Shown: in pieces, positions 4,857 through 15,120 of the stretch | Numbering within the stretch: position 1 is the first letter of the stretch | Layout of the letters: each line of letters starts with the position of its first letter | Program-made: the position numbers and the translations under genes | IMG/VR virus record: IMGVR_UViG_2713896902_000007 | Coordinates: 1-15,120 of that record | DNA: 15,120 nucleotides | Strand: one strand, 5' to 3' | Source: a virus | Lineage: Duplodnaviria > Heunggongvirae > Uroviricota > Caudoviricetes | The notes under the pieces: generated by a model | Databases searched by the model: none | What the model was told of the DNA's origin: nothing | The model's input: the letters and a program-made list of their open reading frames with translations, nothing else

Positions 4857-5164
4857 AGGAAAAAAATTTTTTTTCGAAAGAACTGTTCACACTGTTCACC
4901 CTTTGATTTTATCCTTTTATTTCAGAGTGATAGGTGGTTAATAATGGGTGAAGGGTGAACATTCGATTCTTCACCTCCGGCATTCTGCCGGTGTGACTCA
5001 TACCGGTGATTAATCCCCCGTACTGAAAATCGCACAGGGAGAAAAAAGTTTTTTTTGATTTGATTGTTCACACTGTTCACATTTCGTTTTTCTCTTTTAA
5101 TTTCAGTGTGATAACGAGTGAATATACGGTGAAGGGTGAACAGTGGATTGTTCACCTTCGGGGG
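4857..5164. repeat. crr-like cis replication region: two ~125-bp direct repeats carrying TGTTCAC(C) iterons
   Basis: Repeat 1 is 4857-4980, repeat 2 is 5037-5164, with a 56-bp spacer. Each contains tgttcacactgttcac plus inverted ggtgaaca/tgttcacc copies. This matches the described architecture of P4 crr (two 120-bp repeats about 60 bp apart, type I iterons bound by alpha), and it lies just downstream of the alpha gene. Confidence 0.7.
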
Positions 5165-5173
5165 ATGTCGGGA

Positions 5174-5200
5174 TAAAAAAAAGACCGGCAGATGCCGGTC
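5174..5200 (-). terminator. Rho-independent terminator downstream of alpha
   Basis: On the minus strand: hairpin gaccggca-tctg-ccggtc (5183-5200 on plus) followed by a U8 run (A-run 5174-5182 on plus), about 8 nt after the alpha stop codon. Confidence 0.55.
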
Positions 5201-5207
5201 AGGTGGG

Positions 5208-12246: not shown

Positions 12247-12293
12247 ATAACTCCTTTTCAGCCTCCCCTTTAAATGAGTGAAAGGAGATTGTA

Positions 12294-13877
12294 GTGTTAG
12301 TTTATGTTAATTCGTTTAATTGCATCGGTGAAGATAGTTTTTTTAGCGTAGTGCGTTCTGTGTGTGGTTGGCTTAATAGGGTTGCTAATATTCGCCTATC
12401 AACAGATGAGCTACTTTCGCGGCGTGATTGGAATTTAGAGCGAGCCTATGTTAGAACCTACACGGCTGATAGAATGGAACCTAAAATATATTCCATAATG
12501 TACACTCATCCTGATAGGAATGTGAGCGGTAGACAATGGATTACAGAAATTGGAATTAGACGTGAAAAAGGAAGCACGTTTATATCTATATTGTTAGAAA
12601 TAAGTGATGTTAGCACTATGGTTGATGCAAAACCAATTGCTACTCGTCCATCTCTGGTATCATATTTGAAACGGAATTGTGTATTCGATCTGGATGTTAT
12701 CGGCCAGAAAGTGGATTATATTAAAAGTCAGTATGGCGACTTTCAGTATCTTATGCATGAAATTTCTAGGGATGACAGGACCTACCCGCTAGTTTTTATT
12801 AGTGAAGGTAATGATGGATTTCCTGTTATACCTGAAAAACTACAGGAGCAACTTATTGGGCTTGCTCAGGTTGTTGCAACAAGTGGTAAAATGGACTCTT
12901 GGGAAATGGAACGATTACTTGGAAGACACTATTCATCTTGGGGGGGGGCAATAAATATTATTTACCCAATGAATAAGTCAGGGTATATAGGAACAAAACT
13001 TTTTCTCCCGAAGCAAGTTGATGAAATTAAAGCGGGTAATGTTCCTATTAATAATTATATATTATCAGTAATAACGCATGCTTTTAATGGCTATAATAAA
13101 AAGTTGCATTTATCACCAGCTAATGTTCGTGCCAAAAGACAGCGTGATGATAATATTTCTTTTAGGCAGAGATTAAATGAGTTAAAAGATGGTGCTCAGT
13201 ATGAAGCTTTGCTCGATGAAGTCCTCTTAGAGTTTGAGGAGTTTAAGGCTGCTAGTGAAGAATTAGAGCTTGATTATTTAAAAAGGATTGAGGAATTGGA
13301 TGCAAAGCATGATGCAGTTGTCTTTGAAAAAAATAAAATAGAAGTAGACTTAGAAAGGTTAAAATACGATATTAGGAAATACCATGGAAAAGCTACTAAT
13401 GGTGATGTTGATGTTGAAAAGATAATATCTTTAATTAGCAATAGGTTAAACCCTGAGTCCGTTTTGAGTTTATTAGAAATCCTAATCCCTAATAATGTTG
13501 AGATTCTTAAATCAGCATTTTCTTCAGCGAGAAACTCATCGAAATTCAAACACAATCATAGATTGATTTATTTATTATATAAACTTTGTACAGAATATCT
13601 TCTTGAGTATCTTGAAAATGGAGATAATAAGGCCAAAGATATTCTTGGTGATGCTTATTCAGCAAATGAATCAGAGACGGTAGAGCGATCTGCTACATTA
13701 TCTAAAATGAGAGAGTTTGACTATAATGGTCAAAAAATAAAGATGTTCCAACACGTTGGTATAGGAACAGCCCGCTCCAAGTCTGAAACTATAAGAATCC
13801 ACTTTTGGGTTGATAGAAGTAAACGTAAAATAATTATCGGATACTGTGGAGAACATCTTGATGTTAAATCTACATAA
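12294..13877 (+). CDS. Hypothetical 527-aa protein in the satellite cargo hotspot (candidate anti-phage defence protein)
   Basis: Long uninterrupted ORF with a GTG start and strong SD, visibly more AT-rich than the flanking P4 core genes. I recognise no family. Central coiled-coil-like E/L/K-rich segment (about residues 290-360); C-terminus ...IRIHFWVDRSKRKIIIGYCGEHLD. Convergent with int. Confidence 0.7.
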   Translation: MLVYVNSFNCIGEDSFFSVVRSVCGWLNRVANIRLSTDELLSRRDWNLERAYVRTYTADRMEPKIYSIMYTHPDRNVSGRQWITEIGIRREKGSTFISILLEISDVSTMVDAKPIATRPSLVSYLKRNCVFDLDVIGQKVDYIKSQYGDFQYLMHEISRDDRTYPLVFISEGNDGFPVIPEKLQEQLIGLAQVVATSGKMDSWEMERLLGRHYSSWGGAINIIYPMNKSGYIGTKLFLPKQVDEIKAGNVPINNYILSVITHAFNGYNKKLHLSPANVRAKRQRDDNISFRQRLNELKDGAQYEALLDEVLLEFEEFKAASEELELDYLKRIEELDAKHDAVVFEKNKIEVDLERLKYDIRKYHGKATNGDVDVEKIISLISNRLNPESVLSLLEILIPNNVEILKSAFSSARNSSKFKHNHRLIYLLYKLCTEYLLEYLENGDNKAKDILGDAYSANESETVERSATLSKMREFDYNGQKIKMFQHVGIGTARSKSETIRIHFWVDRSKRKIIIGYCGEHLDVKST

Positions 13878-13926
13878 AGTCCCCAATCTATTGAATTTTA
13901 ATAGTTGCTTGGACTGAAATCGTTTT

Positions 13927-15120
13927 TTATGATTGGGGGTGCACAATTTGCCCCCAATCATTCATTAGTTGCTTACGTTTTTCTAAATAAACCGAGCGAT
14001 TATAAGCGCGACGTACTTCGTTTTTATCGCTATGAGCAAGAGCTGCTTCTATAACATCAGGATTGTAACCACGTTCGTTTAAGGCGGTGCTTGCAATAGA
14101 ACGTAGACCATGGGCTACTAGTTTGCCAGCGAAGCCAATTCGCTTTAATGCGGCATTTGCCGTTTGGCTATTCATTGGTTTTAAGGGGTCACTCCTGCTA
14201 GGAAAAACATGTGTACGATGAGCACTGATGGGTTTCATTATATTCAAAATGTCTAAAGCTTGGGGGGACAAAGGAACAATGTGTTCTCGTTTTGCTTTCA
14301 TTCTTTCAGCTGGAATTATCCAGAGTTTCGCATCTAAATCGATCTCAGCCCATTGAGTGCCTGAAGCTTCAGAAGGACGGACAAGAGTTAGGAGTTGCCA
14401 TTCAATGAGACATCGAGTAGAGACAGATAGATTTGACATTGTTAATGAATGCATCAGATTAGGCAATTCCTCTGGGCGTAGTGTTGGCATATTTTTCTTT
14501 TTAGGTTTCTCAAATGCCATACCAACACCTGATGCTGGATTTGCATCAATCAAACCGGTGTTAACCGCATAAATCATTATCTCGTTAATGCGTTGCACCA
14601 GTCGACGAACGGTCTCTAGCGCCCCTCGAGCTTTGACGGACTCAAGAGCTTCAATTAATGTTCGGGCTTTGATCTTCTGAACGGGGATCTCACCGATAGT
14701 GGGGAATACGTCTTTCTCAAGTGAACGCCAAATGTCTTTTGCGTAATCAGGGGTAACGCTTTTGCTTTTGAGCAGAAACCAGTTAGCGGCGACTGTTGAA
14801 AAAATACTGTCAAGCGCGATTTGTTGCTGTTCCTCTGCCACTTTCGCTTGAATTTGCGGATCAATTCCATTGGCTAATAATGAAAGATAATCAGCTTTTA
14901 ATCTCCTGGCATCTGCAAGCGATATGGCTGGGAAGGCACCTAGCCCCATCATTGTCCGCTGCTTTGTTGTCGGACGTTGATAACGGAAACGCCATAACTT
15001 CTTACCGTTCGTTTTAACGAGAAGAAAAAGACCATCGCCATCATGCAATGTAAGATCCTTTTCTAACGCTTTTGCGCGCAGCACTTCTGTGTTGGTCAGG
15101 GGGCGTGTCGTTCTTGCCAC
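13927..15120 (-). CDS. int: Tyrosine integrase (P4 / CP4-57 IntA family)
   Basis: 397 aa reaching the window edge. N-terminus ARTTRPLTNTEV...DGDGLFLLV...GAFPAISLADAR is typical of P4-type integrases; C-terminal catalytic region has HGLRS and a conserved Tyr region. The first codon in the window is GTG at 15118-15120, so the true start may be this or just outside. Confidence 0.9.
   Translation of the reverse strand: MARTTRPLTNTEVLRAKALEKDLTLHDGDGLFLLVKTNGKKLWRFRYQRPTTKQRTMMGLGAFPAISLADARRLKADYLSLLANGIDPQIQAKVAEEQQQIALDSIFSTVAANWFLLKSKSVTPDYAKDIWRSLEKDVFPTIGEIPVQKIKARTLIEALESVKARGALETVRRLVQRINEIMIYAVNTGLIDANPASGVGMAFEKPKKKNMPTLRPEELPNLMHSLTMSNLSVSTRCLIEWQLLTLVRPSEASGTQWAEIDLDAKLWIIPAERMKAKREHIVPLSPQALDILNIMKPISAHRTHVFPSRSDPLKPMNSQTANAALKRIGFAGKLVAHGLRSIASTALNERGYNPDVIEAALAHSDKNEVRRAYNRSVYLEKRKQLMNDWGQIVHPQS

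Follow-up and report, generated by a model that had tools for sequence, protein, structure and literature searches.

A probably intact P4-like satellite at the 3' end of ssrA, with a putative anti-phage gene beside cos

The new sequence analysis indicates, with a probability of roughly 90%, that the 15,120-nucleotide stretch of DNA studied here (the window) contains an intact P4-like 'Type A' satellite of about 10.6 kb, which would reach from about position 4700 to position 15120 and on for about 185 bp past the window end, and which would be integrated at the 3' end of ssrA, the E. coli tmRNA gene. Specifically, the element appears to be a mosaic, in which a 7.35-kb core that is 97% identical to P4 (crr, alpha, cnr, orf151, epsilon, eta with the CI RNA, vis, ori, sid, delta, psu and cos) is combined with a CP4-57-type integrase and attachment-site module and with a 527-aa cargo gene in the cos-proximal hotspot. 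The element is of a known and ordinary kind: such satellites are common, and near-identical copies are already public.

An earlier sequence-only reading of the same DNA had proposed an alignment to phage P4 (NC_001609 / X51522), and this alignment reveals uninterrupted homology across the essential and helper-exploitation region. Window positions 4861-12215 match P4 4291-11624 without a break and at 97.3% nucleotide identity, on through cos to P4 base 29, a similarity (7.4 kb, 97.3%) that is far above chance. Alpha, cnr, orf151, epsilon, vis, sid, delta and psu retain exactly their P4 lengths and are 97.4-100% identical to the P4 proteins, free of stops and frameshifts, while eta, the CI immunity RNA, the ori octamers, the two crr repeats, the Psid and PLL regions and the 19-nt cos end are intact as well. 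The open reading frames named earlier, namely alpha, cnr, orf151, vis, sid, delta and psu of 777, 106, 151, 88, 244, 166 and 190 aa, were all recovered at those sizes, and the accompanying claim of intactness also holds, as alpha, sid, delta, psu, epsilon, vis and eta are without inactivating lesions and the cis sites are intact. 'Type A' P4-like satellites are defined by seven core components (PMC8628076, PMC10085698), and all seven, following the definition in PMC8628076, were found in the element. Every part is thus present and intact in the sequence, from which we infer that each would be active and that a P2-like phage could mobilize the satellite as its helper. As a separate observation, epsilon, eta, the CI RNA, crr and ori are present in the element and were absent from the earlier list of its parts.

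The replication module begins with crr, the cis-required replication region (4861..5161), which consists of two 120-bp direct repeats with alpha-binding octamers. The repeats, at 4861-4980 and 5042-5161, differ from P4 at 6 and 2 positions, respectively, and one octamer is altered from TGTTCACC in P4 to TGTTCACA. The alpha transcription terminator (t-alpha; 5177..5201, minus strand) is the same, base for base, as P4 4604-4628, the terminator annotated in the P4 record. Alpha itself (5208..7541, minus strand), the primase-helicase and origin-binding replication protein, is identical to its P4 counterpart at 769 of 777 residues and matches phrog_2249, DNA primase, with an E value of 4e-241, and the copy-number regulator cnr (orf106; 7556..7876, minus strand) is identical to P4 ORF106 at 106/106 residues. 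The divergent control region with PLL, ori and Psid (9594..10144) has retained 6/6 of the type-1 octamers of the P4 ori, at 9872-9975, and the stretches 9594-9723 and 9993-10150 do not differ from P4, nor do the PLL and Psid regions. The three type-2 decamers of the P4 ori are replaced by unrelated sequence at about 9739-9775.

The genes for exploiting a helper lie on the plus strand and are conserved to a similar degree. Sid (10145..10879), the external scaffold that directs the helper capsid to small size, is identical to P4 Sid at 241 of 244 residues when counted from the P4-equivalent ATG, and would be 250 aa long from an upstream GTG. Delta (10876..11376), the activator of helper late genes, is 166 aa long with 162 residues identical to P4, and the double Ogr-type zinc finger ascribed to it in the sequence-only reading is indeed there, with all eight cysteines (4, 7, 30, 35, 87, 90, 113 and 118) kept. 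Psu (11450..12022), which is both a polarity-suppression (anti-Rho) and a capsid decoration protein, is identical to P4 Psu at 187 of 190 residues. The proposed cos packaging site was likewise found (12145..12215), with a 19-nt cohesive end, GGCGAGGCGGGGAAAGCAC at 12187-12205, identical to that of P4. Homology crosses the P4 11624/1 junction at cos and continues to P4 base 29; the cos region is 91-94% identical to the cos of P2-like phages, and its flanks share 91-100% identity with the cos of P4 and P2.

Also on the minus strand lie orf151 (8012..8467; 147 of 151 residues identical to P4), epsilon, the derepressor of the P2 helper prophage (8460..8747; 95 aa, 94 identical, with R36Q), and vis (orf88; 9327..9593; 86 of 88 identical), an AlpA-family excisionase and regulator that matches phrog_2790, excisionase and transcriptional regulator. 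The eta frame (8740..9330, minus strand), whose start overlaps the vis stop (ATGA), encodes 196 aa rather than the 199 aa of P4 because of an in-frame 9-bp deletion that leaves the frame open; it has a Pfam Phage_ASH match (E 1e-21) and an Icd-like C-terminus (NF033153). According to the gene model in PMC10111431, which cites Forti 1999, kil is nested in frame within eta. A short leader reading frame (29 aa; 46 aa in P4) was considered as a truncated kil and rejected on the strength of that gene model, which places kil in the eta frame that is open here.

The CI RNA gene and its targets are located inside the eta frame. The CI immunity RNA (8992..9079, minus strand), a member of the C4 antisense RNA family, matches RF01695 over its full length at 74.3 bits against a gathering score of 45, and its loop reads UAUUCUUCGAGG here versus UAUCCUGUGAAG in P4. 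The left-operon leader downstream of PLE (9178..9268, minus strand) carries a seqA-type CI target, ACUCGAAGG, and a hairpin with a trailing U run that forms an early terminator, and scores 70.7 bits against isrK RF01394 and 50.4 bits against c4-a1b1 RF03163 (gathering threshold 46.7), so that the CI RNA, the a1b1 targets and the isrK-like leader all exceed their Rfam gathering thresholds. A seqC-type target (approximately 8945..8960, minus strand) overlaps the Shine-Dalgarno sequence CUCGAAGGAGG and has changed in step with the CI loop. Specifically, the loop segment UCUUCGAG is complementary to CUCGAAGG, which is present at the seqA-like site and again at the seqC-like one, and the loop and both targets differ from P4 in a mutually compensating fashion. 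Because all three have changed together, the satellite is probably heteroimmune to P4, and their co-variation argues for selection on a working immunity system.

Gene order and sizes had been held to match P4 closely, which is true of the order and lengths of the genes, and of the cis sites, between crr and cos but not of the integration module. The latter is not P4's, because the integrase is only 36.6% identical to P4 Int (397 aa versus 439 aa) and the element sits at ssrA, not at the leuX tRNA gene used by P4. The tyrosine integrase (13927..15120, minus strand) comprises arm-binding, central and catalytic domains, covered nearly full length by three Pfam domains; its R, HxxR and Y motifs align with those of P4 Int, and the protein matches WP_047657977, annotated as a whole gene, at every residue. 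Type A elements carry their integrase no more than ten genes from psu, and this one, although of a different lineage from P4 Int, lies one gene beyond it. It is an ssrA-specific, CP4-57-like integrase. Its assignment to the end of the element was correct, and it is contained whole in the window. The label 'near-complete' given to the element reflects the window edge only. The ssrA gene and the proximal attachment-site core, known only from related genomes, would follow about 185 bp past the window end: in three such genomes 185 bp separate the int start from ssrA downstream of it, and in one related locus (L003) the distance from att to att is about 10.6 kb, close to the 11.6 kb of P4. A tRNA search of the window found none.

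At the other end, the start of the element had been placed at 4857 and has to be moved to about 4700, where the window contains a degenerate copy of the tmRNA 3' end. This distal attachment-site core (4700..4722), which reads TGGTGG-GCTGGC-GGAGTTTGAA, marks the left end of the satellite and is the one place in the window that comes close in sequence to the 3' end of ssrA (query from L003), agreeing at about 20/23 bases, with indels, and lacking the base that corresponds to tmRNA U357. Close by, a putative pair of arm-type integrase-binding repeats (4775..4797; CGTATACCTAATCGTATACCAAT) shares 22/23 bases with L003 16626-16648; the motif recurs in related loci upstream of int, adjoining ssrA, the L003 copy being located between int and ssrA.

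Window positions 1-4545 are outside the satellite and constitute the end of a neighbouring prophage, which carries a Pin invertase, PD-T4-3, an EcoRII restriction-modification system and a Mu-type tail module, and which is not a P2-like helper. The satellite could instead be imagined to reach further left, with the PD-T4-3 and EcoRII module (613-4471) as a further defence hotspot, situated between primase gene and att. The module is indeed the immediate neighbour of alpha and crr, P4-like elements are known to have a primase-att hotspot, with about 7% of P4 defence systems reported from such sites (PMC13586616), and the block 1-12211 is contiguous in ETEC1717-type genomes. In ETEC1717, however, the module comes after the tail-fibre and Pin invertase block of the prophage with the Mu-type tail, and three records of small E. 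coli plasmids (30-44 kb) carry the same 4-kb module, in settings other than this satellite. Moreover, the only ssrA-3'-end-like core and the arm repeats (4700-4797) separate the module from crr; in GN03551 and other genomes the same satellite (99% identical from 4545) abuts ypjA and not the module; and including the module would bring the element to about 15 kb, more than a P4-size capsid can hold. A satellite extended to the left is hence highly improbable, and the module was rejected as a part of it on these grounds.

By analogy with P4 biology, an intact satellite would be expected to follow the P4 life cycle. In the silent prophage, the CI RNA would pair with its two targets in the nascent left-operon transcript and cause early termination. 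With a P2-like helper in the cell, its Ogr and the Delta of the satellite would activate Psid and PLL, Vis and Int would excise the element, and Alpha would replicate it from ori and crr. Epsilon would derepress the helper prophage and Delta would switch on the helper late genes, upon which Sid would force the helper capsid protein into small capsids that Psu decorates. The helper terminase would finally package the whole 10.6-kb genome from cos, and the cargo gene would therefore travel along.

A competing view would see in the element a domesticated or cryptic remnant that no longer excises, replicates or is packaged and is kept for its cargo or integrase only, in the manner of CP4-57. This cryptic prophage of E. 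coli K-12 is likewise a P4-like element at ssrA and has lost the P4 helper-exploitation and replication genes. The shared site, the degenerate distal attachment-site core, the lost ori type-2 repeats and the fact that no helper is visible within the window are all compatible with such decay. Unlike CP4-57, however, the satellite retains all helper-exploitation and replication genes along with the cis sites, at 97-100% protein identity and without a lesion, the co-variation of CI loop and targets implies continued purifying selection on immunity, and a 99%-identical element occurs in unrelated strains. CP4-57, in which an AlpA/Vis-family protein drives excision, moreover still excises from a copy that is similarly imperfect, given that its excision is reported to delete tmRNA U357, the very base missing from the distal copy here (PMC10107115). 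A cryptic remnant is accordingly an improbable reading, and an intact, potentially mobilizable satellite is preferred. Points that speak against the latter are the degenerate core, the replaced ori decamers, the altered crr octamer and a neighbouring prophage that is no P2-like helper. As in CP4-57, excision of this satellite would probably also inactivate tmRNA through the U357 deletion.

The slot that gop-beta-cII occupies in P4 is filled in the satellite by a single cargo gene (12294..13877, plus strand) of 527 aa, with a GC content of about 35%, a GTG start and an AAAGGAG ribosome-binding site. Pfam and NCBIfam contain no family for it, and Rousset 2022 listed it merely as 'hypothetical' and left it out of its tests. 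The gene product matches the PADLOC HEC-07 profile PDLC04161 with an E value of 6.8e-29, residues 13-525 aligning to positions 37-551 of 553, a distant similarity to a profile for which PADLOC gives no curated cut-off. By this match, the cargo is distantly related to the HEC-07 defence family, which reduced plaquing in the work of Payne et al. (bioRxiv 10.1101/2024.01.29.577857). Like HEC-07, it is a single protein of similar length with a full-length profile match, but it resides in a satellite hotspot and not within a Hma system. HEC-07 proteins are reported to have a thioredoxin-like second domain without the CxxC motif and a C-terminal RelE-family RNase domain with a conserved histidine (bioRxiv 10.1101/2024.01.29.577857). 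The thioredoxin-like middle domain without CxxC was recovered in the cargo. The C-terminus is less clear-cut: a separate model of the last 92 aa reached a pLDDT of 90, a Foldseek search of this model against the PDB gave no match with E < 0.5, and RelE, HigB and HigB2 chains surfaced only at E values of at least 2 (TM 0.3-0.39). Pfam scans of 23 C-terminal segments returned nothing consistent. Within the family, H487, R501 and H521 are invariant, and members of the class of about 530 aa end in ...ETIRVHF...IGYCGxHL, while those of the class of about 504 aa carry an unrelated 46-aa tail; the family thus appears to swap C-terminal effector domains.

Judging by the distant profile match and its position, the cargo is most likely an anti-phage defence gene serving the lysogen. 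It might alternatively have no role in defence and represent an addiction or toxin module, or an unrelated gene that came by chance to lie in a variable region, which would agree with the missing family assignment, the distance of the HEC-07 match, the want of a significant Foldseek match for a RelE-like C-terminal fold and the 'hypothetical' entry in Rousset 2022. We consider this unlikely, albeit to a degree that leaves it real weight, in view of the full-length match (E 7e-29) to a family that reduces plaquing (bioRxiv 10.1101/2024.01.29.577857) and the recovered HEC-07-type middle domain. In addition, the gene sits in the exact cos-proximal slot between psu and int, a hotspot that has already been described and in which most systems tested were antiviral (PMC9122126), and its low GC content and patchy distribution (10/5426 genomes) fit a mobile defence gene. 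If the defence assignment is carried further, the cargo may be an uncharacterized single-protein anti-phage system distantly related to HEC-07, from a family that swaps C-terminal effectors, borne on a fully mobilizable satellite whose CI-RNA immunity, re-specified by three coordinated changes, would let it coexist with or superinfect P4-type satellites; this composite proposal is tentative and falls somewhat short of even odds.

The satellite offers a clean example of modular assembly, in which a near-invariant hijacking and replication core is combined with an exchangeable integrase and attachment-site module, an exchangeable immunity loop and a one-gene defence cassette adjoining cos. If it can be mobilized, a probable anti-phage gene would be moved between E. 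coli strains by a satellite. Beyond this, the significance extends little further than annotation, and experiments may be worthwhile on the cargo alone, which belongs to a defence family that has received little study.

Several complete genomes, of E. coli strains from human, baboon and chicken sources, contain copies of window 4545-15120 at 99% identity, and the cargo is present in 10 complete genomes among the 5426 searched, with cattle and feral pig also among the hosts. Because of these near-identical copies and the occurrence of the cargo in 10 complete genomes, a recent spread is suggested. The satellite of E. coli GN03551 (NZ_CP147535 1310003-1320577), for instance, is 99.1% identical over window 4545-15120 and shares the identical integrase protein, 524 of the 527 cargo residues, the immunity type and the ssrA site, but differs in its left neighbour, which is ypjA there and the prophage end with PD-T4-3 and EcoRII here.

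The reading of this DNA, from sequence alone, as an intact P4-like satellite is supported, and the best description of the element is a P4 core combined with an ssrA integration module of CP4-57 type, a variant of the immunity loop and a HEC-07-like cargo. Specifically, a megablast search against phage records returns window 4861-12186 as a single continuous match to P4 4291-11624 at 97.3%, which, when the P4 sequence is permuted circularly, runs on past the cos junction as far as P4 base 29 (window 12215). The open reading frames (ORFs) named in the sequence-only reading are all recovered at their sizes in a six-frame ORF list: alpha (5208-7541, minus strand, 777 aa), orf106/cnr (7556-7876, minus, 106 aa), orf151 (8012-8467, minus, 151 aa), vis (9327-9593, minus, 88 aa), sid (244 aa if started at ATG 10145; the ORF as called mechanically opens further upstream, at GTG 10127), delta (10876-11376, plus, 166 aa) and psu (11450-12022, plus, 190 aa). 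Residues identical to the P4 proteins number 769/777 in alpha, 106/106 in cnr, 147/151 in orf151, 94/95 in epsilon, 86/88 in vis, 241/244 in sid, 162/166 in delta and 187/190 in psu, and PHROG profiles agree with the gene identities. The alignment to P4 that had been proposed as a check is thus unbroken, and all eight proteins have the length of their P4 counterparts and no internal stops, in line with the claim that no stop or frameshift interrupts the ORFs named in the sequence-only reading. The predicted double Ogr zinc finger of delta is also there, with the eight cysteines of both fingers kept (Cys 4, 7, 30, 35 and 87, 90, 113, 118). Indels are few in a base-by-base alignment: the non-coding crr region carries two insertions of one base each, the ori region lacks one base, and eta contains a compensating -1/+1 pair plus an in-frame 9-bp deletion. 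GC content is 55-65% over 5500-9500 and more mixed, at 41-58%, over 9500-12000.

The cis-acting sites are similarly preserved. The cos site that had been noted is confirmed by a 19-nt cohesive end (GGCGAGGCGGGGAAAGCAC, 12187-12205) that is the same as in P4, as are the 35 bases before it, and the cos region is 88-94% identical to cos of P2-like phages. All six ori type-1 octamers are kept (6/6), crr retains its two 120-bp repeats with a single octamer changed, the alpha terminator shows no change, and no base differs from P4 in the 130 bp upstream of vis (PLL side) or the 150 bp upstream of sid (Psid). The sole clear replacement among these sites concerns the three ori type-2 decamers of P4 (P4 9176-9205), in whose place unrelated sequence stands at ~9739-9775; around it, ori octamers and promoters are conserved. 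The seven core components by which PMC8628076 defines Type A P4-like satellites are all there and intact, like the cis sites, and the element may be mobilisable and its cargo functional. The identification is correct yet ordinary, near-identical copies being known: RefSeq already holds copies 99% identical across window 4545-15120. A passage of PMC9122126 citing de Sousa and Rocha puts P4-like satellites in ~44% of E. coli isolates.

The differences from P4 are non-random and cluster in the immunity region, with 42 over 417 bp. Three Rfam matches lie above gathering scores there, all on the minus strand: a full-length C4-family RNA, the P4 antisense immunity (CI) RNA (8992-9079, 74.3 bits, gathering score 45), the a1b1 target family (9216-9268) and an isrK-like leader with terminator (9178-9255). 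Within window 8945-9268, also on the minus strand, the CI loop (~9027-9038) reads UAUUCUUCGAGG versus UAUCCUGUGAAG in P4, the upstream target (~9205-9215) ACUCGAAGG versus UUCACAGG, and the downstream target (~8948-8958) ACUCGAAGGAGG versus UUCACAGGAGG. The positions that differ from P4 are the same in the loop and in both targets and the changes compensate one another, so pairing is kept inside each element and not across this element and P4; a second complementary segment, in which GUGAGAA pairs with UUCUCAC, does not vary. That loop and targets co-vary in all three places gives good grounds to regard the immunity circuit as functional and under selection, and the element is predicted to be heteroimmune to P4. 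Comparable co-variation has been described between P4 and the retronphage phiR73. Among four related elements there are three loop types, that of E. coli GN03551 being the window type, that of ETEC1717 the P4 type and that of AR_0013 a third, which marks the immunity determinant as a swappable module. The long eta ORF spanning the CI region (8740-9330, minus) is open over 196 aa, versus 199 aa, also open, in P4. In the model outlined in a passage of PMC10111431 citing Forti 1999, kil is nested in the eta frame and the start of eta is coupled to the vis stop; a short out-of-frame ORF considered as kil was dropped, kil being nested within eta.

An integrase had been expected at the end of the element, and a complete 397-aa ORF is indeed found there (13927-15120, minus, starting on the window's last base), but it shares just 36.6% identity with P4 Int. 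Its arm-binding, central and catalytic domains are complete, the R, HxxR and Y motifs align, and it is identical to WP_047657977, a whole 397-aa gene in RefSeq annotation. In three related genomes ssrA and then smpB are located 185 bp past the int start, and therefore the element sits at the tmRNA gene, a site it has in common with CP4-57 of K-12. Within the window just one sequence resembles the ssrA 3' end, at 4700-4722 (TGGTGG-GCTGGC-GGAGTTTGAA versus TGGTGGAGCTGGCGGGAGTTGAA in ssrA), followed by an arm-type repeat pair (4775-4797) that recurs between int and ssrA. The satellite hence starts near 4700, ~150 bp further left than the 4857 originally proposed. The GN03551 satellite measures ~10.6 kb from att to att, compared with 11.6 kb for P4. 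The distal att copy (4700-4722) has no base equivalent to tmRNA U357, the same base that CP4-57 excision reportedly deletes, inactivating tmRNA (PMC10107115); excision of this element would probably likewise leave a defective tmRNA behind.

P4 homology stops 29 bp past the cos cut, and a single cargo gene (12294-13877, 527 aa, GTG start, AAAGGAG ribosome-binding site) occupies the space as far as int in place of gop-beta-cII, with GC falling to 32-38% over 12500-14000. This cos-proximal psu-int hotspot has been demonstrated to carry many antiviral systems (PMC9122126). Pfam and NCBIfam searches assign the protein to no family; it has a full-length match to a PADLOC HEC-07 profile (E 7e-29), and its C-terminus also matches NsnC profiles. 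HEC-07 is a single-protein system that lowered plaquing in E. coli, described as having AdoMetDC-like, thioredoxin-like and RelE-like domains (bioRxiv 10.1101/2024.01.29.577857). The last 92 cargo residues are modelled confidently (pLDDT 90) as helices followed by a five-stranded sheet, and this model has no significant match to RelE or HigB, so the RelE-like part of that description is unconfirmed for the cargo. Homologues occur in Klebsiella, Pantoea, Dickeya, Serratia, Aeromonas, Shewanella and Vibrio. They form two classes that conserve the N-terminal two-thirds and differ in their C-termini (window 13599-13874; homologues P0054-P0077), one with a ~90-aa domain ending IGYCGxHL and the other with an unrelated ~46-aa tail (…GNHNHLRFIDD…FAKTPSD…); these alternative modules suggest effector swapping. 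The cargo is present in 10 of 5426 complete E. coli genomes, each time at >=99.6% identity, and is identical at 524/527 residues to WP_047657979, given by Rousset et al. as an untested 'hypothetical' single-gene system of P4 hotspots. Sister satellites at ssrA carry a DEAD/DEAH helicase (AR_0013, L004 17949-19757) or a SIR2 protein with an ATP-binding protein (ETEC1717, L005 24233-27108) in the hotspot, and these differing cargoes illustrate cassette exchange in the cos-int slot.

Window 1-4545 is outside the satellite. It holds a complete Pin/resolvase-type serine invertase (1-555, plus, 184 aa, beginning on the first base), a GIY-YIG protein matching the validated defence gene PD-T4-3 (613-1437, minus, PADLOC E 3e-140), an EcoRII-type cytosine methylase (1747-3222, plus) and an EcoRII endonuclease (3257-4471, minus, 808 bits to PDB 1NA6, aligned along its whole length). 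The latter two constitute an EcoRII-type restriction-modification pair (1747-4471), and copies 99% identical to the 4-kb EcoRII and PD-T4-3 module are also found in three records of small E. coli plasmids. In ETEC1717 the left-flank block comes after the tail-fibre genes of a prophage whose tail module is of Mu type, and in GN03551 the same satellite directly adjoins ypjA instead of this block. The ssrA locus is thus a tandem prophage-satellite array, in which the prophage next to the satellite is not a helper of P2 type. The ETEC1717 invertase follows an invertible tail-fibre segment of the Mu-type-tail prophage, and the PD-T4-3 gene is located a short way outside the satellite, at the end of the neighbouring prophage. 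Additionally, the slot between invertase remnant and satellite att is variable (window 555-4545 versus L003 1427-5995 in GN03551), containing PD-T4-3 and EcoRII in the window, AR_0013 and ETEC1717, and in GN03551 among others the autotransporter gene ypjA.
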